Shown here one piece after another: positions 16,159-22,672 of a DNA stretch of 64,000 nucleotides. This DNA comes from Kiritimatiellia bacterium (GTDB lineage Bacteria > Verrucomicrobiota > Kiritimatiellia > RFP12 > UBA1067): assembly GCA_017962315.1 (NCBI GenBank), contig JAGCVN010000118.1:492-64491 (forward strand), given 5' to 3'. The notes under the pieces are model-generated. The model was not told the origin of the DNA, searched no databases, and was given only the letters and a program-made list of their open reading frames with translations. The position numbers and the translations under genes were made by a program. The first letter of the stretch is position 1; the number at the start of each line of letters is the position of its first letter.

Positions 16159-18732
16159 TCAGCGATTGGCGAACTGAAGGGAGTCCGCACCTGCCGTCAC
16201 GGTGATCGGGCGGTCGCGGTGAAGCTCCCCCGAAAGCAGTTTCACGGAGAGGGCGTCAAGGACGAACTTGTTGATGGCGCGTTTGACCGGGCGGGCCCCG
16301 TATTCCGGCTCGTACCCATGTTCGGCAAGGAAATTCTCCGCCAAGGCATCGACCGAAAGATCCACCCCGTCAGTCTTCATTTTCGCCGTGAGCGAAGCCA
16401 GCTGGATTTGGACAATCCGGCGGATGTCCGCCTTTGAAAGCGGACGGAAGAGGATGGTCTCATCCAACCGGTTCAGGAATTCAGGCGAAACCCGGCTCCG
16501 CAGTTCCGCAAGGACGGCCGCTGTGACAACCGCCTCGTCCGACTCCAGCCCCCGCATGAAATACTCGTGGAGCTTCCTCTGCCCGATGTTCGAGGTGAGG
16601 ATGAGGATCGTGTTTTTAAAGTTGACGGTACGCCCCTGTCCGTCCGTCATGCGCCCGTCGTCAAGGATTTGGAGAAGCGTCTCGAAAACTTTCGGATGGG
16701 CTTTCTCGATTTCATCGAAAAGGATGACGCTGTAAGGTTTGCGTCGGACCGCTTCGGTGAGCTGTCCGCCCTGGTCGTAACCGACGTAGCCGGGAGGCGC
16801 GCCAAACAGGCGCGCGACGGTGTGTTCCTGCTGGTATTCGCTCATGTCGATACGGATCATCATATCGCGGCTGTCAAACAGGAACTCCGCAAGCGCCTTG
16901 CCAAGTTCGGTTTTACCGACACCCGTCGATCCGAGGAAGAGGAAGGAGCCGATCGGACGGGAAGGGTCGCCCAGTCCGAGGCGGTTGCGGCGCAGAACGG
17001 CGGCGACGGCGGCGACGGCGCGGTCCTGTCCGATGACGCGCCGGCGGAGTTCTTCCTCCGCATGGGCGAACCGCTGCGCCTCGTCGCTGCTCATCTTGCT
17101 GACGGGGATGCCGGTCCAGTCGGTGACGACCTGCATGATGTCGTTCTCGTCGAGCGCACGTTTCAGCATCGTCCCCTGCTCCTCCATCTCCACGACGACC
17201 TCGCCCGCCTGGCGTTCTGCATCCGCGGCCCGGCGGTCAAACGAAGCCGCCTCCTCGAAGCGGGAAGCCTGCTCCGCGTCGCGGGCGTTCACGCGGAAAC
17301 GCTCGGCCTCGTCCTGCAGGGACTGCAACCGCTCGAACAAGGCGCGTTCGTTCTGCCATTTGGCGTTGAGTTCGTTTTCCCGTTCACGGAGGTTGGCGAT
17401 CTCAAGGTCGAGCGGCTGAACGGCGGTTGAATCGGATCCGTCCTGAAGGATGCTTTCGCGCTCGATCTCTTTGCGGCGGATCGTGCGGGAAAGTTCGTCC
17501 AGTTCACGGGGGACAGAGGCGCGTTCGATACGCATACGGGAGGCGGCCTCGTCCAAGAGGTCGATGGCCTTGTCGGGCAGGAAACGGTCCGAGATGTACC
17601 GTTTCGAGAGACGGACGGCGGCGACGACGGCGGTGTCGAGGATCTTCGTGCGGTGGTGACTCTCGTATTGCGACTTGATCCCGCGTAGGATGGCGATCGC
17701 GGAATCGATATCAGGCTCATCGACTTCGACCTTCTGGAAACGGCGTTCAAAGGCGGGATCCTTCTCGATGTACTGGCGGTACTCGTCGTGTGTCGTCGCA
17801 CCGATGACCATCAGGCGTCCGCGCGCGAGTTCTGGCTTGAGAATGTTCGCCGCATCCATCGCGCCGGAGGAACGCCCCGCCCCGATCAGCTGGTGGATCT
17901 CATCGATAAACAGCACGATCGAAGGATCGGCAGAAGCCTCGTCGAGGACTTTTTTGAGCCGCTCCTCGAACTCACCCATGTGGCTGGCGCCGGCGACGAG
18001 CGCCGTGAGGTCGAGCGAATAGGGCTGAATACCCTTCATATCGACGGGAACGTCCCCTTTGAGGATCCGGTGGACAAGCCCTTCGACAATGGCGGTCTTG
18101 CCCGTTCCGGGTTCGCCGACAAGGACAGGGTTGTTCTTCGTCTTGCGGGAGAGAATCTGGAGAACACGCCGGATTTCGCGTTCGCGGCCGATGGCGGGAG
18201 AGATCGCCCCCTCGCGCGCAAGGGCGAGAAGGTTGCGCCCGTATTTGCAGAGCGAGGGATGACGGGAGGCGGAGGCATCCCCCGCCGTTTCAGGGTGTGC
18301 CCCCCGGAACGCCAGAACGGCCTCACGCAGTTTCTCCCGCGTGACGCCGGCCTGCGTGAACAAAGCCCGGACAGGATTCTCGATGACCGCGAGCGACCAG
18401 AAAAGATGTTCAGACGAGGCGACGGCGACATTCGTCTCGCGGGCGAGGGCGGCGGCCGCCATCCGGCAGGCGTCGAACGAAGCCGAGGGGACGGGTGAAC
18501 TGCCGGAACCTTTCGGAACCGCCTGAAGCATGGAGGAAACCGCGCCGAAAAACCGATTCTTGTCGATGCCCAGCTGATCAAAGAGGAATACCGCCATGTC
18601 GCGCGCCCGTTCCCAGAGCGCGACGACCAACACCGGCGTGGTGACTTCACCGTGCCCGGAATGGATTGCAATCTCCTGGGCGCGATCCAGCACGGCGACA
18701 GCTTTTTCAGTGAATACAGGTTGTTCAGCCAT
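16159..18732 (-). CDS. clpB: ATP-dependent chaperone / disaggregase ClpB
   Basis: Two AAA+ modules ([14 protein letters not shown] and [15 protein letters not shown]) with a long coiled-coil middle domain. Start is probably MAEQPVF at 18732; the track gives 18744. Confidence 0.92.
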
Positions 18733-18740
18733 AGGTACCC

Positions 18741-19016
18741 TCAATCCTTGCTTGATTTATAACCGATGATGGCGAGGACTAGCACGATCCAGAACCATTT
18801 TGAACCGAGTAACACGATGGCGATACTCTTCAAAAACCAGATAGCGGCCACTGCGACCACAACAAGGAGGCCACAACCGATAATCGTGTCGGAATCCCAT
18901 CCACTGCCGCCGGAAGACCGGCGGCGGGGGGACGACGGACGGCGGGAACGCCGGGACGCCCCCCTCTCCTCGACTTCTTCGAATTCCCCAGTTTGATCGT
19001 TGTACCGTAGTGCCAT
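18741..19016 (-). CDS. Small 91-aa membrane protein: MALRYNDQTGEFEE head, Arg/Ser-rich linker, two TM helices
   Basis: The stop is 9 nt upstream of the clpB ATG. The first 14 codons encode the same peptide as ORF 19222..19440, and every nucleotide difference there is synonymous. Confidence 0.7.
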   Translation of the reverse strand: MALRYNDQTGEFEEVEERGASRRSRRPSSPRRRSSGGSGWDSDTIIGCGLLVVVAVAAIWFLKSIAIVLLGSKWFWIVLVLAIIGYKSSKD

Positions 19017-19221
19017 CGAACACCTTCTTGAAAAGACTGCCGCGTTTCGCCTGCTGAACAGTCTATTCTATCCGATTCCGGCGCGTTTTCAAACAAAAAC
19101 ACGCATCCGCATGTGACCGCATCTGCGTGATCCACCTGTCAAACGCGATGCGGCGGCACCGGCAAGACCATTCTTCCCTCGTATATGTTCGGAGGACTCC
19201 CGCTTTCTCTGACAGGCCCGG

Positions 19222-19440
19222 TCAACCGTCCCCTTTTTTGAACAAACGGTGGAGAAGCGTATCCCCGGTTGCGACCAGGGCGACACACACGAGAACCTTG
19301 CCTACCTCGACGGCCACCTTGCCCCAGTCAACCGAAGAACGGGAGCGGGTACGGCCACGGGAGCGGGTACGGCTGCGGGATGAACCGCCGCCGCCCTCCT
19401 CTTCAAATTCCCCTGTTTGATCGTTATACCGTAGCGCCAT
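19222..19440 (-). CDS. Small 72-aa protein: MALRYNDQTGEFEE head, Gly then Arg/Ser-rich linker, one hydrophobic helix, ends ...KKGDG
   Basis: The ATG is 3 nt after the E1 stop. Paralogue of 18741..19016. Confidence 0.7.
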   Translation of the reverse strand: MALRYNDQTGEFEEEGGGGSSRSRTRSRGRTRSRSSVDWGKVAVEVGKVLVCVALVATGDTLLHRLFKKGDG

Positions 19441-19443
19441 CGA

Positions 19444-20694
19444 TCAGCCCCCCTGTCCGGCGACCTCATCGAGGTTGATACCCGACGTGTCGCCCATGTC
19501 TCCAAGACGGGATTCGATTTCGTCGCCCGTATCGAGTTCGGCATGGCCGCCGCAGACGGCGCACCCGTCGTTGCGGGCGATCCGCGCACCGTACCAGCGG
19601 AGGATCGTCGGTTTCGCCGCGGCGTTCGGGAAGGGCGCCCAGTTGGCGTGGCGGCGTTCCCGTCGGTTCGCCCACATGTAGTAGTCATAGACCAGCTCGT
19701 CTTCCAGCTGGGCGAGTCCGGTGTCCAGCCCGCGCGAAAGCTCGACGAGCGCAAGCTTGACCATGAGGTTGCAGATCGGTTCGATATCCGCCGAAAGCCC
19801 GACCTGCACCATCGCGGAAGCGTCCTCCGGCGAGACGTAGGCGGCGATGCGCCCCGAACGGCGGGCGGAGGCTTCGTCGGTGATCTCCTCGTCGCGGCTT
19901 TCAAACCAACCGTTCCCGATGAGGCAGTTGTAGCAGGGGCCGCCGGGACGGTAACGGAAGACGTCGCCGCCCTCCGCCCGCGTGACGGCCCTGCCGTACA
20001 GACAGGGCTTGGCGCGGCGGAGCAGCGCGTTCGTCAGGTTGAACCGGCTGGTGTTGTTGTCAGTCGCGCAGATCACGAGATCGGCGCGCGCGGTTTCACG
20101 GTCGAGAAGCACCGGCTCGCGGTTGATATCGACCGGGAAACGTTCGACTTCCGCATACGGGTTCTTCCCGAGGATCGCGTCGGCCACGGCGTCGGTCTTG
20201 AGCCGTCCGAGATCCTGCACCGAGCAGATGTGGCGAGAAAGGTTGTGCAACTCCATACGGTCGAAATCAAGCAGGGCGAACGCGCCGACGCCGGCTTTCG
20301 CCAGTTCGACGGCGATCTGTCCGCCGAAACTGCCCAGTCCGACGATCATGACGCGTTTCTGCGCGAGTGCGCCGACCTCCAGAATCCCTTTGCTACGGGA
20401 GAACAGTTCACTCCGTGACGGAATGAAGTTCAGCGGCAGTTCCTTTCCGTCGAGAAAGGCTGTCGCCTTCACGCCATCCCCTTCCCGTTCGTAACGGACG
20501 CAGAACCCCGCCGGGGGAAGTTCCCCCGTCCCGCCCCGGATGAAACGGCAAGGCGAAACCTTACCGTAGGCATGGCGGGGCGGGCGGGCGTGGAGGTGTA
20601 CGACCTCCTCCCCCTCCCACTCGCAGGCGACGCCGTCGGCGACGCCCGTATCGGGGAGGGTCATCAGTTCCTCTTTGTTCAGATAGACGATCAT
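19444..20694 (-). CDS. ThiF/E1-like adenylyltransferase with an N-terminal extension of about 95 aa
   Basis: Rossmann/ATP motif VMIVGLGSFGGQIAVELAKAGV, DFDRMELHNLSRH, and CxxC pairs (CYNC, CAVC). GGAAGGAG RBS. The ORF ends ...VAGQGG. Confidence 0.85.
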   Translation of the reverse strand: MIVYLNKEELMTLPDTGVADGVACEWEGEEVVHLHARPPRHAYGKVSPCRFIRGGTGELPPAGFCVRYEREGDGVKATAFLDGKELPLNFIPSRSELFSRSKGILEVGALAQKRVMIVGLGSFGGQIAVELAKAGVGAFALLDFDRMELHNLSRHICSVQDLGRLKTDAVADAILGKNPYAEVERFPVDINREPVLLDRETARADLVICATDNNTSRFNLTNALLRRAKPCLYGRAVTRAEGGDVFRYRPGGPCYNCLIGNGWFESRDEEITDEASARRSGRIAAYVSPEDASAMVQVGLSADIEPICNLMVKLALVELSRGLDTGLAQLEDELVYDYYMWANRRERRHANWAPFPNAAAKPTILRWYGARIARNDGCAVCGGHAELDTGDEIESRLGDMGDTSGINLDEVAGQGG

Positions 20695-20729: not shown

Positions 20730-20924
20730 TTACGCGACTTCTTGCAACGCGAACCCCTCTTCGGTCATGCGCGTGACGACCTCGCCCTGGGCGGGCGATT
20801 CCGTCTTGTTGACCTGCTTGAACTCGCCGGTGACGGGATCATAGACCAGATCCGTCATCGTGTTCTCGCCAAGTCCCTGCTTGCGCACGTTCTCACTCAG
20901 GTTGTTCAATTCTCTCTCGTTCAT
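20730..20924 (-). CDS. Small 64-aa protein with an internal LVYDPVTGEFKQV motif
   Basis: Sits between the E2 and E1 genes with an AAAGGAA RBS. It shares Y-x-[DP]-x-T-G-E-F with the two MALRYNDQTGEFEE proteins. No C-terminal Gly. Confidence 0.6.
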   Translation of the reverse strand: MNERELNNLSENVRKQGLGENTMTDLVYDPVTGEFKQVNKTESPAQGEVVTRMTEEGFALQEVA

Positions 20925-20953: not shown

Positions 20954-21382
20954 CTAATCCTGATGGTTGAGGTAGTAATCGATATCCTTCCCTGTACGCA
21001 GGTGTTGCTCATACATCTCGAGCCAGAGGCGGCTCTTGATGAAGACCTTGTAGATGGAGACCTCCGGATGCCATGAATCAAATCCGAAGTGGCAGATCCT
21101 TGTGCGCCCGTTCTCGCTGGTGAGGGTGTGCATTGTGGCGCTGCAGGAATCGAGGTCGTGCCCCCGCTTGTCTTTGAGCATCCGGGTGACGAACACCTTC
21201 GGGATGCTTTCGGGGAAATCATCCAGTTCGATCCGCAACGTGTAGACGTTGCCGCGGTTCGTGCGCGCGCCGAACACGACATAGGGCTCGTCCGTGTCCA
21301 GATCGAAAAAGCGGTAGAGATTGGGGGAAAGCTTGCGGCTGAGCACGCCGAGTTCAAGCTGGTAACGGTCATCTGTCATCAT
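20954..21382 (-). CDS. Prokaryotic E2 / UBC-like protein
   Basis: YTLRIELDDFPESIPKVFV (E2 flap motif) and MHTLTSENGRTRICHF (His...Cys active-site arrangement). The start overlaps the JAB stop (ATGATGA). Confidence 0.75.
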   Translation of the reverse strand: MMTDDRYQLELGVLSRKLSPNLYRFFDLDTDEPYVVFGARTNRGNVYTLRIELDDFPESIPKVFVTRMLKDKRGHDLDSCSATMHTLTSENGRTRICHFGFDSWHPEVSIYKVFIKSRLWLEMYEQHLRTGKDIDYYLNHQD

Positions 21383-22521
21383 GGATTGGATCCTCGTTTC
21401 GTCAGGTTTTTGTAAAAAGCGGTAAACGCGGGATAAATCTCACCCGTAAACACCCACTTCGGCGGGGCGGGCGGAACCCCGGCGGCGGGAAGGTGCGGTT
21501 GGTCCGCCCCTGCGGCGACCGCCGCGCAACGGCGCGCACGGTGAAGCAGGCGGACGCGGCGCGACCACTTCCGCTTGCCCTTCCGGTTCGCCAGCCGGTG
21601 CAGCCGCCGGACCTCGGATCTCGGGAGGCGGGCGTGTTCCGCGTTCCCGCCGGCGGATGCCGAGAGAGGATCCGGGGAACGCGGCGCGTCGGGCGGAAGC
21701 TCGACCACCGGGGCTTCGTAAGGGAACGCCTTCGGGAAATAGACATGCTCCACCCCGTAGCCGCGCCGGACGTTCACGTGGACGCACTTCTCCGCGTCGA
21801 GCTGGACGTTGACCCCCTCAGAGGGAGCGACGGCGGCAAGGTAATCGACAATCTGTTTCAAGACACGGTTGTTCGCCTTGTCGTTCAGCCAGTAATCCCC
21901 CCCGTAAACAGGCGTCGCCAGCCGTGCATCACCGGACGCGACGGCAAGCGGGGCCATGTGCGGGCGGGGCGTCCGGGGGACGGTCAACATCCGGCCCAGC
22001 TCCGGGTCCGTTTCGATCGCGGCACGGAAGGGGCTGACCATCGGCTTGACTTCCCAGCCCGCCTGTTTGTACTCGTACCCCGTTCGCTCGTGGAAGTTGA
22101 ACGCGTTGAACGTACTGGTTCGCCCGCCACAATTCCCGATACAGAGCAGGAAGCGCCCAAGGCCCTCCTTCGCGATGCTGTCCACCATCGTCTGCGCGTC
22201 GTGCCCGCTTGGCCTGGCAAGTCCGAGCTGGTGGTGGGAATGCCATTCGCCGATGTGGCGCAGGCCGTACCGGTGGATGAGGATGCCGCCGACGCGCACA
22301 AGGTAGTCGACATCCTGGTTGAAGAAAGTCACCTGGTGGTTTGCGCGCGGCCCCGGCCCGATCGCGAAGAGGACGACCGGCGTCCCTTCCGCCGTCCAAT
22401 AACCGAACAGTTGCCCGCCCGTTTCGATATTCGGGTAGTCTAAAATACACCGCGAAACAAAATCCAGCTCGCTTTGGTAAACTTGAACCGTAGACGACGG
22501 AACCTGATCATGTAAAGGCAT
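21379..22521 (-). CDS. JAB/JAMM metallopeptidase with a C-terminal extension of about 230 aa (second E2/UEV/RWD-like module plus an Arg-rich tail)
   Basis: IETGGQLFGYW and GEWHSHHQLGLARPSGHD form the JAMM motif. The C-terminal YFPKAFPYEAPVVELPP resembles the E2/RWD FP..YP..PP motif but has no obvious catalytic Cys. GGAG RBS. Confidence 0.8.
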   Translation of the reverse strand: MPLHDQVPSSTVQVYQSELDFVSRCILDYPNIETGGQLFGYWTAEGTPVVLFAIGPGPRANHQVTFFNQDVDYLVRVGGILIHRYGLRHIGEWHSHHQLGLARPSGHDAQTMVDSIAKEGLGRFLLCIGNCGGRTSTFNAFNFHERTGYEYKQAGWEVKPMVSPFRAAIETDPELGRMLTVPRTPRPHMAPLAVASGDARLATPVYGGDYWLNDKANNRVLKQIVDYLAAVAPSEGVNVQLDAEKCVHVNVRRGYGVEHVYFPKAFPYEAPVVELPPDAPRSPDPLSASAGGNAEHARLPRSEVRRLHRLANRKGKRKWSRRVRLLHRARRCAAVAAGADQPHLPAAGVPPAPPKWVFTGEIYPAFTAFYKNLTKRGSNP

Positions 22522-22672
22522 CTTGTATCACTCCAAACATTTCATTGCACCCAAAAGGATTTCCTTTGCCCTATTATTCTAGGGACCTCATCCCGTTTTC
22601 TAAAACAAAAGACTGTTTTCTTGGCAATTTTTTGGGATGCCCGGCTAACAACCAGCCAGACTCCCTCCGCCA

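Follow-up and report, generated by a model that had tools for sequence, protein, structure and literature searches.

Two small proteins of 91 and 72 amino acids, here called A91 and B72, are encoded in the window (the whole 64,000-nucleotide stretch of Kiritimatiellia bacterium DNA that was analyzed), and our overall best explanation, which we hold with about even confidence, is that they serve a JAB-E2-modifier-E1-ClpB system as membrane partners or effectors tagged with a hairpin. Their substitution patterns indicate that both are almost certainly real genes with a constrained N-terminal head, and the head is, judging from shared motifs, very likely a module common to the cassette family and its modifier. 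The locus as a whole is best explained as a mobile six-part system consisting of a JAB peptidase, an E2, a modifier, an E1, one or more hairpin-headed proteins and a dedicated ClpB-type AAA+ unfoldase. The best reading of A91 and B72 is that they would be local members of a family-wide class of hairpin-headed accessory or effector proteins.

The earlier note on this DNA had reported that both reading frames open with the same peptide, and a codon-by-codon comparison bears this out: A91 and B72 both start MALRYNDQTGEFEE and have a 14-residue head in common (head peptide MALRYNDQTGEFEEV), and divergence begins at codon 15. The five nucleotide differences that had been counted over the 42 nt of the head (GCA/GCG, TAC/TAT, ACT/ACA, TTC/TTT and GAA/GAG) were recovered, all of them synonymous third-position changes. 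With ~8.3 of the 42 head sites being synonymous, five synonymous differences out of five would arise by chance with a probability of ~3e-4. The dN/dS-type comparison that had been proposed was made with five head copies from three related Kiritimatiellae genomes (A91 and B72 of the window, both copies of locus L004, and the copy of L001), and each of the 10 pairs showed 4–9 synonymous and 0 non-synonymous changes. Outside the head, dN of the small proteins was 0.27–0.44, that of E1 and ClpB was 0.05–0.06, and the body of A91 evolved with a dN/dS of ~0.35. As the head has changed only synonymously, at saturated synonymous sites and in five copies, both ORFs are very probably translated and the head peptide is very probably under purifying constraint, as the earlier note had argued; its view of A91 and B72 as paralogues also holds.

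Past the head, both proteins continue in the manner described before, with a basic linker of 24–25 residues rich in Gly, Ser, Arg and Pro and then a hydrophobic part, and are otherwise diverged. In A91, the ~45 hydrophobic residues after the linker comprise two transmembrane helices (best 19-residue Kyte-Doolittle window 2.65), and an SKWFWI motif is conserved; B72 has a single weaker hydrophobic segment (Kyte-Doolittle 1.71). The linker has no conserved lysine, and Arg takes the place of Lys in the Kiritimatiellae copies. Based on these features, A91 and B72 are predicted to be small inner-membrane proteins that present an N-terminal beta-hairpin head to the cytoplasm on a basic linker of ~25 residues that is predicted to be disordered. 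Scans of Pfam, NCBIfam, PHROGs and PADLOC placed neither A91, B72 nor the 64-aa protein of the cassette in any family, and word-indexed homologue searches with A91 and the 64-aa protein yielded only four clusters each; the wider family was reached through E1 and then through the loci.

Table 1. Features of the locus, with positions in the window, strand, and the basis of each assignment.
Feature	Position	Strand	Basis or remark
Promoter-like site upstream of JAB	22576-22604		Promoter scan
JAB/JAMM peptidase, 380 aa, cassette gene 1	21379..22521	(-)	PADLOC JAB models, motif, position
E2-like protein, 142 aa, invariant Cys97-His98	20954..21382	(-)	Weak PADLOC E2 matches and alignment
64-aa pre-E1 protein, probable conjugated modifier	20730..20924	(-)	Between E2 and E1, conserved C-terminus
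Modifier hairpin L26-V38 (LVYDPVTGEFKQV)	20811-20849		Inside 64-aa ORF
E1-like adenylyltransferase, 416 aa, beta-rich N-terminal domain and ThiF domain	19444..20694	(-)	Pfam ThiF
B72, 72 aa, cassette-proximal hairpin-headed membrane protein (predicted)	19222..19440	(-)	Head codons 19399-19440
Terminator-like hairpin then T-run, downstream of B72	19099..19114	(-)	Consensus match only
Promoter-like TTGAAA-16-TAGAAT upstream of A91-clpB	19065..19092	(-)	10/12 consensus positions
5'-UTR hairpin between A91 promoter and ribosome-binding site	19035..19063	(-)	Predicted
A91, 91 aa, clpB-coupled hairpin-headed membrane protein (predicted)	18741..19016	(-)	Head codons 18975-19016
ClpB-type AAA+ unfoldase, 857 aa	16159..18732	(-)	Pfam: Clp_N, two AAA modules, middle (M) domain

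The two head genes occupy different positions relative to their neighbors (Table 1). B72 starts 3 nt past the E1 stop codon, and an orthologue is found at the same position in L004, L005, L007 and L008. The adjacency of A91 and clpB that had been noted before is correct, and 8 nt, not 9 nt, separate the stop codon of A91 (18743-18741) from the ATG of clpB (18732); the GAGGG described as a ribosome-binding site inside the 3' end of A91 is present at the junction, where it overlaps the TGA stop codon of A91. The ClpB reading frame in the mechanical ORF list starts at TTG 18744, and since ClpB orthologues begin at the methionine of MAEQP or MPEQP, ATG 18732 is the likely start. When related genomes were checked for an ORF upstream of clpB, an intact one was found to be kept; the A91 type, seen in four lineages and three genomic contexts, always precedes clpB by 8–11 nt. 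In L001 and L090 the A91 type lies upstream of clpB and the cassette is not adjacent. In sample ERZ15610159, JAB-E2-modifier-E1 lies on a separate contig of equal coverage (27.1x vs 28.0x) with no head gene behind it, and the head is unchanged although the cassette is on the other contig.

A terminator-like hairpin and a promoter-like element separate B72 from A91-clpB. The TTGAAA and GGAATCGG.TAGA.T blocks of the latter are conserved in the window, L001 and L090, and in three lineages the A91 type is preceded by a conserved ribosome-binding site (AAGAAGGTG) and the promoter-like element, in keeping with its translation. In each of these lineages the 5'-UTR of A91 is predicted to form a hairpin at this position, with differing sequences; the z-score reaches -4.5 in L090, with weak values for the window and L001. 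An RNA element as the explanation is unsupported, as an Rfam scan of 18600-19600 matched no family. In the best explanation of this arrangement, A91 would be the copy transcribed together with clpB from a promoter of its own and coupled to clpB in translation, and B72 would be the copy coupled to E1. The idea that the two heads are a target-site duplication around an inserted island was rejected because both sit at the same cassette end; GC content gave no island signature.

Of the cassette enzymes, E1 is matched by Pfam ThiF at E = 2.4e-30 and has more than 1500 homologues at 57–67% identity, and the best Foldseek matches of its AF2 model are BubCD, Cap2, ThiF, MoeB, UBA5 and MccB. The first gene matches PADLOC JAB models down to E = 3e-12 and reaches 21.6 bits with Pfam Prok-JAB, under the cut-off of 25; its sequence contains E...HSH...S..D, and JAB homologues stand at the same position in 76/80 loci. 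The 142-aa protein is tentatively assigned as an E2 from its alignment. PADLOC E2 models match it weakly (E = 0.005–0.017), an alignment of 34 sequences has invariant FP..P, H85, G92, T94, C97, H98 and W104 with the UBC-like motif order kept, and hhalign against human UbcH5b places the catalytic Cys85 on C97 in the right motif register, at low significance (E = 0.017, match probability 2.6%). A profile search of the E2 against solved structures (PDB) gave no significant match, and its single-sequence AF2 model was unusable (pLDDT 38).

The 64-aa protein encoded between E2 and E1 contains a third, related hairpin (LVYDPVTGEFKQV), preceded by an N-terminal helix and followed by a C-terminal ...EEGFA and then LQEVA. 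Essentially every locus examined has a small pre-E1 protein between E2 and E1, with a C-terminus conserved as [DE]G[FY]A or PYFA, and natural in-frame fusions of it occur, in every case found to E1 and never to ClpB. On the strength of this position and C-terminus, the 64-aa protein is probably the conjugated modifier. AF2 modeling of a natural modifier-E1 fusion, which yielded secondary structure and pLDDT only, gave a helix and then a beta-hairpin, with pLDDT ~63 for the hairpin and poor values for the remainder of the modifier. According to this model the modifier is apparently a small Ubl-like protein that is not a beta-grasp, and as the predicted fold is of low confidence it may yet be a permuted or minimal beta-grasp. 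A start at the internal Met just before the hairpin was rejected because conservation across phyla extends to the N-terminal ELNLDxL...MRKQ segment. One consensus, L-x-[YF]-[ND]-[PE]-x-T-G-[ED]-F-[ED]-x-[VI], describes both the modifier hairpin and the N-terminal heads.

A hairpin-headed accessory family was defined by three features: a [YF]-[ND]-x-x-T-G-[ED]-F motif no more than ~10 residues from the start codon, a low-complexity linker next, and a gene position immediately behind E1 or ClpB on the strand of these genes. A91 and B72 both fit this definition. Among related loci of Bacteroidales, Fibrobacter, Kiritimatiellae, Verrucomicrobia and Flexilinea, an N-terminal hairpin protein, usually membrane-anchored, follows E1 or ClpB in 62/77 (counted as a head ORF starting within 700 nt past E1 or ClpB), with a transmembrane segment in 43 of the 62. 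In 80 loci the strict motif was matched 127 times on the strand that encodes the cassette, against 2 matches on the other strand. The heads are carried by very different proteins, namely tail-anchored peptides, multi-pass membrane proteins with SH3_3, a DnaJ-type zinc-finger protein, PKD or Ig-like repeat proteins, and a UvrD-like helicase; one protein, in L032, has two tandem heads. In divergent subfamilies the head is of the type LPxGFDPxTGTF, vs VWDKNTMTF or YFDAQDGKM for the modifier hairpin of the same locus.

The earlier note had allowed that the head might turn out to be a common low-information sequence unrelated to E1/E2/JAB loci. Its core, Y-D/N-x-x-T-G-x-F, is indeed generic and also occurs in Kelch repeats, but a relation to these loci is evident: a motif-first scan of metagenomes found E1 just upstream in 47/51 N-terminal matches and ClpB just downstream in 14/51, while 28/80 metagenome matches had the hairpin core inside unrelated proteins. 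These results rest on a relaxed head pattern; the full Kiritimatiellae pattern found nothing in metagenomes. As approximately 13 genome loci and most motif-first metagenome loci have a head-transmembrane gene after E1 with no adjacent ClpB, the association of the head with E1/E2/JAB is closer than that with ClpB. The system occurs commonly among Bacteroidales of the human gut and the rumen, one of them a cultured Segatella copri isolate (L022). No E1 relative was found on viral contigs, and plasmids held only distant E1 relatives in unrelated contexts.

A physical link between the E1/E2/JAB operon and ClpB had been proposed from this one junction and is reinforced by the wider set of loci, as a ClpB-type gene follows E1 in at least 47/77 (27 full-length, 17 without M-domain and 3 other multi-AAA proteins), and in many cases the head gene adjoins the end of the ClpB-like gene or overlaps with it (-4 to +45 nt). 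The window ClpB has a full N-domain, AAA-1, M-domain, AAA-2 and small D2 domain and spans positions 1-852/853 of the NCBIfam ClpB equivalog TIGR03346, at 1017.7 bits, below the cut-off of 1232.1; eight other full-length ClpBs (seven cassette-adjacent and that of L001) scored 920–1018 bits, all below the cut-off as well. It is 89–90% identical to the ClpBs of L001 and L004. Across loci, ClpB identity follows E1 identity and not host family (Spearman correlation 0.70). In Muribaculaceae the cassette-adjacent ClpBs form four lineages that are 47–57% identical mutually, each pair mirroring E1 identity, and one of them is 68% identical to a Flexilinea ClpB; this divergence along E1 lineages argues against vertical inheritance in Muribaculaceae. 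ClpB is probably a dedicated component of the system. The M-domain is the part by which ClpB works with DnaK, and the window ClpB, which keeps this domain, could simply be the only ClpB of the cell.

Among known systems, the cassette can be compared with Bil bacterial ubiquitination-like operons (BilABCD, types I/II; operon classes 6d and 6C, Iyer et al. 2006; PMC1779556, PMC10557695, PMC11601603), which likewise have separate E1, JAB and small modifier genes, and a separate E2 gene whose counterpart in the cassette is putative. An E1 with a ThiF/MoeB-type adenylation domain is present in both (in the cassette by Pfam ThiF and fold matches), as is a JAB/JAMM peptidase (by PADLOC and motif, with Pfam Prok-JAB just below cut-off). 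Class 6d E2s have a conserved histidine after the catalytic cysteine (PMC1779556), which corresponds to C97-H98 of the putative cassette E2. Processing by JAB, as has been shown for BilC (PMC10557695), is implied for the cassette modifier, since this is often extended past its conserved C-terminal motif or joined to E1. In place of the beta-grasp Ubl with a conserved C-terminal glycine of Bil, the cassette has a modifier of ~60 aa with a low-confidence fold, predicted as helix-hairpin-strand and ending in GFA or PYFA. It also differs from Bil in its gene order, JAB-E2-modifier-E1, and from both Bil and Bub in the addition of a ClpB-type ATPase and hairpin-headed accessories, which go unmentioned in the Bil and Bub papers examined. 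Sequence matches of the cassette proteins included no solved Bil protein.

Type II CBASS (Cap2/Cap3) and Bub have a related E1 fold and JAB, and the PADLOC "E1-E2" and "JAB" models match the cassette. No CD-NTase cyclase was found among the operon proteins or neighboring ORFs, and a Pfam scan of the operon proteins found no DUF6527 (BubE). Unlike the Bub fusions (Ubl-E2 and E2-E1), E1 and E2 are separate genes in the cassette, and the conjugated item would be a dedicated small protein and not a cyclase C-terminus or beta-grasp Ubl. In MccB-MccA and PaaA, as in the cassette, an adenylating E1-like enzyme with an additional N-terminal domain is paired with a short, gene-encoded peptide as its substrate, and both MccB and PaaA appear among the matches of E1 by sequence and fold; these systems have no E2 or JAB and make antibiotics, whereas the cassette keeps both, along with a peptide that has a Ubl-style, putatively processed C-terminus.

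The hairpin itself has two parallels. Effector-associated domains (EADs) of prokaryotic conflict systems are short modules common to a Ubl and diverse effectors of the same operon (Kaur et al. 2020, PMC7159879), and the cassette hairpin is similarly found on the modifier and on diverse accessory proteins; EADs, however, are death-like helical domains, and the cassette module is a ~14-residue hairpin placed at the very N-terminus. The Kelch blade hairpin (Pfam Kelch_1-6) has a similar core, [LV]-Y-D-P-x-T-G-x-[FW], and phmmer with the 64-aa protein recovers multi-repeat Kelch proteins through the YDPxTGxF stretch. Membership in Kelch was rejected, as there is one hairpin only and no propeller, and no Kelch family of Pfam matches A91, B72 or the 64-aa protein; the resemblance is most simply a common optimal beta-hairpin sequence. 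Full-text literature searches found no description of the cassette.

In Pup-Mpa, phospho-arginine-ClpC, ClpV-VipB and ubiquitin-Cdc48/proteasome, a small tag or N-terminal peptide is read by the N-terminal region of an AAA+/Hsp100 protein, and an unstructured stretch is then threaded. The cassette offers a functional analogy to these pairs in a ClpB that is genetically tied to a conjugation system and to tagged proteins with predicted disordered linkers; it differs from them in having no evident protease partner and a putative ClpB recognition, and, relative to Pup ligase or kinase tagging, in a tag that is a beta-hairpin putatively installed by E1 and E2. The layout of head, low-complexity linker and body would be that of a two-part degron composed of a tag and an unstructured initiation region. 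The JAB peptidase would probably expose the C-terminal GFA of the modifier, which E1 and E2 would then activate and transfer. The hairpin would be the handle read by ClpB, most likely through the ClpB N-domain, and the linker the unstructured stretch at which ClpB threading starts. That ClpB reads the head is possible, and we place it somewhat short of an even chance; Hsp100 N-domains do read short tags elsewhere, as ClpV does with VipB and ClpC with phospho-arginine. A91 and B72 would have the tag built in, and conjugation by E1 and E2 would put the same tag on other proteins. ClpB would be recruited to the membrane proteins or would extract them, and free or conjugated modifier would compete with them for ClpB. 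The full pathway, in which a non-beta-grasp modifier of ~60 aa is processed by JAB and conjugated by E1/E2, its hairpin is read by a dedicated, co-transferred ClpB, and the modifier competes with tagged membrane effectors, is proposed only tentatively and is more doubtful than its individual steps.

The head may instead be read by the conjugation enzymes (the E1 adenylation domain, E2 or JAB) and not by ClpB, which would then be a downstream or co-regulated helper, with the membrane proteins acting as conjugation targets or acceptor primers, as membrane anchors for the enzymes, or as competitive regulators. We consider this unlikely, though a serious alternative. E1, E2 and JAB must all bind the modifier, which has the same hairpin, the fusions found for the modifier are only to E1 with none to ClpB, B72 starts 3 nt past the E1 stop codon, and head proteins come directly after E1 with no adjacent ClpB in L009, L022, L028, L030, L031 and L034, in the same layout in L051, L058, L066, L077, L078 and L079, and likewise in most motif-first metagenome matches. 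Yet an invariant A91-type head stands beside clpB in L001 and L090 without an adjacent cassette, the ERZ15610159 cassette on another contig has no head gene of its own, and many head genes abut or overlap the end of a ClpB-like gene (-4 to +45 nt). The linker also has no conserved lysine, and head proteins accompany short E1s that have no N-terminal domain. The latter are E1s of 305–321 aa (L077, L078, L083-L087), and because they still come with head proteins, the E1 N-terminal domain was rejected as a general reader of the head. A further possibility, which we regard as improbable, is a homotypic adaptor, in which the modifier hairpin and the accessory heads pair by beta-sheet augmentation or oligomerization and thereby couple effectors to the modifier, much as EADs do for a Ubl and its effectors in other conflict systems. 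The same short module does occur on the modifier and on very different accessory proteins, the L032 protein has two heads in tandem, and a precedent exists in a Ubl and an effector that both have an N-terminal EAD1 domain (PMC7159879); a 13-residue hairpin, however, is small for a specific homotypic interface, and as the head type of divergent subfamilies differs from the modifier hairpin of their own locus, strict self-recognition is not obvious.

It is quite improbable that A91 is chiefly a leader or coupling ORF, whose translation would set clpB expression by coupling or as a stress-sensing uORF and whose head would be a relic of B72 duplication. Such a role would suit the junction found in four lineages, where the gap is 8–11 nt and the stop codon of A91 overlaps the ribosome-binding site of clpB, the conserved upstream promoter-like element with its CTTGAAA -35 box and 5'-UTR hairpin, and the fast-evolving A91 body; it would not account for the absolute amino-acid constraint on the head, the conserved SKWFWI membrane motif, or the same head-linker-membrane design downstream of ClpB or E1 in other phyla, where a clpB leader role is not possible. 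Coupling and a protein-level function are compatible, and a leader role would therefore add to the best explanation and not replace it. Finally, the ORFs are short and partly of low complexity and match no protein family in any library, as they would if they were untranslated and owed their identical start to recent duplication, gene conversion or a nucleotide-level element. This is barely credible and effectively refuted: synonymous sites in the head are saturated with no amino acid change in 10 comparisons, whereas recent conversion or an RNA/DNA element would conserve nucleotides instead, intact orthologues exist in four lineages, and no Rfam family matches.

If A91 and B72 are indeed hairpin-tagged membrane partners of the JAB-E2-modifier-E1-ClpB system, they bear on a class of operons for which, in CBASS type II, Bil and Bub, true protein conjugation has been shown only recently and for which, to our knowledge, targets and downstream readers are mostly unknown. 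Within this class the cassette stands out through its very small and seemingly non-beta-grasp modifier, its own ClpB-type unfoldase and its varied hairpin-headed accessory proteins. We know of no bacterial E1/E2-installed tag that is read by an Hsp100 motor, and literature searches found none; if ClpB reads the hairpin, the cassette would provide one. As the cassette is common in gut and rumen Bacteroidales, including the cultured Segatella copri isolate, experiments are feasible. If the tag-and-unfoldase pathway is true, it would be a functional prokaryotic counterpart of ubiquitin-Cdc48 or Pup-Mpa that has spread horizontally among gut and rumen bacteria.

The two minus-strand ORFs A91 (91 aa, just upstream of clpB) and B72 (72 aa, just after E1) both start with MALRYNDQTGEFEE, and codon comparison of their first 42 nt shows five differences, all of them synonymous third-position changes and exactly those that the earlier note had listed. 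Nei-Gojobori counting across five copies of this 14-residue head (window A91, window B72, both copies in the related locus L004, and the copy in L001) yielded 4-9 synonymous differences per pair on approximately 8 synonymous sites, which amounts to saturation, and 0 non-synonymous differences per pair on approximately 34 non-synonymous sites. This pattern shows that selection acts on the peptide in every copy, as that note had argued, and excludes both recent gene conversion and an element at the nucleotide level as the source of the shared head. Outside the head, dN was 0.27-0.44 for A91 (dN/dS of about 0.35) and 0.44 for B72; for E1 and ClpB from the same genomes it was 0.05-0.06. A91 homologues of 85-92 aa occur in three other Kiritimatiellae lineages with an overall identity of 56-64%, and their heads are intact apart from one Q-to-R change (protein P0003).

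In both proteins the head is followed by a basic linker of 24-25 residues that is rich in Gly/Ser/Arg/Pro and contains 6-8 Arg/Lys and 0-2 acidic residues. The approximately 45 hydrophobic residues that follow in A91 can be read as two transmembrane helices, and B72 has one, weaker hydrophobic segment; by the positive-inside rule, head and linker should be cytoplasmic. A B72 orthologue on a metagenome contig (L006, 741-935) is 64 aa long, with an 8-residue deletion within the Arg-rich linker.

Upstream of these ORFs on the same strand of this rumen Kiritimatiellae MAG lie genes for a JAB peptidase, an E2-like protein, a 64-aa protein and E1. The identity of E1 is secure, with the predicted structure matching the folds of BubCD, Cap2, ThiF, MoeB, UBA5 and MccB, and that of the JAB peptidase is well supported by profile and motif. 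The 142-aa protein carries invariant FP..P, H, G.T.ICH and W motifs, and a weak profile alignment places the catalytic cysteine of UbcH5b on its C97, making it a likely rather than a proven E2. In its C-terminal part (annotated as the last third), the window JAB has a roughly 230-residue extension past the catalytic domain, including an Arg-rich low-complexity tail; because JAB proteins of different loci span about 230 to 640 aa, this extension is a variable module. Core parts have extra paralogues in some other loci: L027 (7351-7842) has a second E2-like gene after E1, and L063 (5250-5974) and L065 (5436-5924) have, before E1, further small ORFs resembling the modifier or two modifiers in tandem.

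Features of the cassette and of the region before clpB
Feature	Coordinates	Strand	Length	Basis
JAB peptidase	21379-22521	minus		PADLOC E = 3e-12; JAMM-type motif
E2-like protein	20954-21382	minus	142 aa	invariant motifs and weak profile alignment
Modifier candidate	20730-20924	minus	64 aa	slot between E2 and E1; hairpin, C-terminal GFA
E1	19444-20694	minus		ThiF E = 2.4e-30
B72	19222-19440	minus	72 aa	ORF listing
Terminator-like hairpin, downstream of B72	19114-19099	minus		consensus match
Promoter-like TTGAAA-16-TAGAAT, upstream of A91	19092-19065	minus		consensus match
A91	18741-19016	minus	91 aa	ORF listing

B72 starts 3 nt past the E1 stop codon, and A91 is preceded by the promoter-like element, a 5'-UTR hairpin and a ribosome-binding site AAGAAGGTG, all three of which are also kept before the A91-type gene in L001 and in L090, another A91-clpB lineage. 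The terminator-like hairpin after B72, the promoter-like element before A91 and the B72-E1 spacing argue that B72 would be the last gene of the cassette transcription unit and A91-clpB a separate unit, the signals being consensus matches only. In this region (window 19035-19114, minus strand; L001 9890-10000; L090 2414-2524), the -35 box CTTGAAA resembles sigma-32 promoters, and a stem is predicted for the 5'-UTR hairpin in each lineage with differing sequences. A91-clpB could be under heat-shock or thermometer-type control.

The head is not restricted to this genome. More than 1500 homologues share 57-67% identity with E1, and 80 genome loci were retrieved through them, almost all from gut or rumen, with hosts including Bacteroidales (Muribaculaceae, Prevotellaceae, Bacteroidaceae, Alistipes), Fibrobacter, Kiritimatiellae, Verrucomicrobia, Flexilinea and others. 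The gene order JAB-E2-modifier-E1 is kept in about 76 of the 80. Searching all six reading frames of these loci with a strict head motif gave 127 matches on the cassette strand versus 2 on the other. A looser pattern found an ORF with the motif among its first residues, starting within 700 nt after E1 or ClpB, in 62/77 loci, 43 of which have a transmembrane segment in that ORF; the control, run over the complete opposite strand from every locus (900 kb), yielded 24 such ORFs. Head-bearing proteins are diverse. They include tail-anchored peptides (43-118 aa), PKD or Ig-like repeat proteins of approximately 336-560 aa, and multi-pass membrane proteins (230-330 aa), some of which end in an SH3_3 domain. 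In L080 and L081 (9935-11116), the head MPSIYNPTTGTITG sits on a 393-aa UvrD-like SF1 helicase directly after ClpB; the head is thus not confined to membrane proteins. L032 (7282-7570) encodes a head protein between E1 and ClpB in which tandem heads, MGYIYDNETGEFR and GGYVYDDETGEFR, precede the membrane anchor. The Segatella copri isolate OF03-3 (L022, 7260-7991) has a head protein of about 245 aa whose head leads into a linker rich in Ser, a transmembrane segment and zinc-finger repeats of the DnaJ type (CxxCxGxG). Proteins of this design also occur at many loci from gut metagenomes (e.g., L096, L103, L132); ClpB is not adjacent in L022, and the repeats represent another chaperone-domain link, in a cultured strain.

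A metagenome scan with the pattern Y-N-[DE]-x-T-G-E-F-E-[DE] returned 80 matches, 51 of them at an ORF N-terminus. E1 is directly upstream in 47/51 and ClpB directly downstream in 14/51; in three of the four lacking an upstream E1, the sequence before the ORF is shorter than 300 nt. In one more match, a head ORF beside E1 has no ATG start, and the remaining 28 lie inside unrelated proteins, 21 being one gut-phage portal protein. This PHROG 12 protein of an abundant human-gut phage (L093, 1921-3159, and 20 other loci, e.g., L099, L100, L102) carries the motif internally as RIYNDHTGEFEEM, around residue 160, which is probably a coincidence with a generic hairpin, though the virion protein shares the cassette's habitat. 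Kelch-repeat proteins, too, came up when the 64-aa protein was used in an exhaustive phmmer search, the match running through the YDPxTGxF core, so this core is generic beta-hairpin sequence. The concern that the head might be a common sequence unrelated to these loci therefore holds for the core, but N-terminal placement beside the cassette is specific.

The 64-aa ORF itself contains a related, third version of the hairpin motif, LVYDPVTGEFKQV, and the slot between E2 and E1 holds a 56-67-aa protein in essentially every related locus. These proteins share an N-terminal segment ELNLDxLxxxMRKQ, the hairpin and a defined C-terminus, [DE]G[FY]A(A/C) or, in a divergent branch, PYFA; the window protein continues with LQEVA after GFA, and in many loci the E1 N-terminus carries the slot protein as an in-frame fusion (e.g., L022, L024, L028 and the homologous protein P0109). 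Ub/Ubl precursors awaiting DUB cleavage look the same: their C-terminal motif is conserved, and in some cases additional residues or a fused protein come after it. From this precursor-like C-terminus, we infer that the 64-aa protein is a probable modifier, matured by JAB and activated and transferred by E1 and E2. BilA is processed by BilC in the same manner as DUB maturation of Ubl precursors (PMC10557695). AlphaFold2 modelling of the modifier part of the natural fusion P0109 gave a helix (residues 7-17) and a beta-hairpin (28-33 and 38-43; pLDDT about 63), the remainder being disordered; this element order appears, with low confidence, to differ from that of a beta-grasp.

At least 47/77 loci have a ClpB-type gene after E1, at times with a head gene between, and pairwise ClpB and E1 identities are correlated (Spearman 0.70), bearing out the proposed link between the E1/E2/JAB operon and ClpB. 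Among the 47, 27 are full-length, 17 lack the M-domain (ClpB residues ~405-525; 724-796 aa) and the remaining three are multi-AAA proteins of another kind, about 1250 aa long. The M-domain-less genes lie directly after E1 throughout (L027, L039, L043, L046, L054, L055, L057, L059, L061-L063, L065, L067-L069, L073, L075), and the Clp_N Pfam domain was not detected in that of L063. At their 3' side, at -4 to +139 nt (mostly ≤+45), are multi-pass membrane proteins of 230-270 aa beginning MALPxGF[ND]PxTGTF. A head-bearing membrane protein also comes after the ~1250-aa proteins (L026, 7300-11121; L047, 7274-11074; L052, 7273-11010), and that of L026 has a C-terminal SH3_3 domain; the ~1250-aa protein of L026, the sole one scanned, has four classic AAA modules. 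Although they come from one family, the Muribaculaceae linked ClpBs fall into four lineages with a mutual identity of only 47-57%, a distance typical of different phyla, each lineage pair matches its E1 divergence, and one shares 68% identity with a Flexilinea ClpB. This argues that the cassette-linked ClpBs of this family are not inherited as a vertically transmitted housekeeping clpB would be, with MAG binning errors as a caveat. All eight full-length linked ClpBs tested from other loci and the two from Kiritimatiellae score 920-1018 bits with the NCBIfam ClpB equivalog model, below its cut-off of 1232.

An ORF is kept upstream of clpB in all four lineages examined, as the earlier note's reading entails, with the A91-type gene 8-11 nt away in 4/4 and in three different upstream contexts. 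The gap in the window is 8 nt rather than the 9 nt reported, measured to the ATG at 18732, and the GAGGG described inside the A91 3' end is present but overlaps the TGA stop codon. The listed clpB ORF (16159-18744, minus) starts at a TTG at 18744 that would overlap the A91 stop codon; the ATG is probably the start and the TTG probably not used, because orthologues begin MAEQP or MPEQP. In L006 (1279-3839), clpB is present as two overlapping ORFs (518 and 342 aa), a frameshift or assembly error. The L001 ClpB is 89% identical to the window ClpB, yet the gene next upstream is efp in divergent orientation, not the cassette. JAB-E2-modifier-E1 lies on another contig of that sample, with an E1 89% identical to the window E1 and no head gene after E1 on the contig. 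As coverage is equal (27.1x vs 28.0x), one genome very probably holds the two modules apart, and its head is nevertheless invariant.

The constrained N-terminal hairpin thus shares its motif with the probable modifier and is followed by a disordered linker and a membrane anchor; B72 is tightly linked to E1 and A91 to ClpB, which co-evolves with the cassette. The hairpin may be a docking handle, with ClpB as the favoured reader and modifier conjugation handing the same handle to other proteins. AAA+ substrates classically consist of a tag with an unstructured linker after it, and Hsp100 N-domains read short tags (ClpV with VipB, ClpC with phospho-arginine). ClpB is favoured for these two reasons, and because the A91-clpB pair persists apart from the cassette and many head genes overlap the ClpB gene or lie right beside it (-4 to +45 nt).

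The leading alternative has E1, E2 or JAB as the reader of the hairpin: the modifier must bind these enzymes, the modifier fusions found are to E1 only, and many loci have head genes with ClpB not adjacent. The E1 N-terminal domain can be set aside as a general reader, since E1s of 305-321 aa without it still accompany head proteins. Two further options, homotypic coupling through the hairpin by analogy with EADs (PMC7159879) and A91 as a leader ORF, are partly compatible.

Among known systems, the Bil operons (classes 6d and 6C) come closest, sharing with this cassette separate genes for E1, JAB and E2 (a likely E2 here), a small modifier that undergoes processing (predicted here) and a histidine after the catalytic cysteine of the E2, putative in this cassette (PMC1779556, PMC10557695, PMC11601603). 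Unlike Bil, the cassette does not appear to have a beta-grasp Ubl with a C-terminal glycine as its modifier, and ClpB and the hairpin-headed proteins are additions that the Bil papers do not mention (PMC1779556, PMC10557695, PMC11601603). Assignment to CBASS type II fails on the cyclase, and to Bub on DUF6527, neither being found in a scan of the operon's proteins. No description of the E1/E2/JAB-ClpB cassette or the hairpin motif was found in the full-text literature searched, which does not in itself prove novelty. The paired heads are real, and the overall interpretation first drawn from the sequence is supported. Together these results point to a widespread, seemingly undescribed variant of bacterial ubiquitin-like conjugation systems, with stress proteostasis or phage defence as candidate roles.
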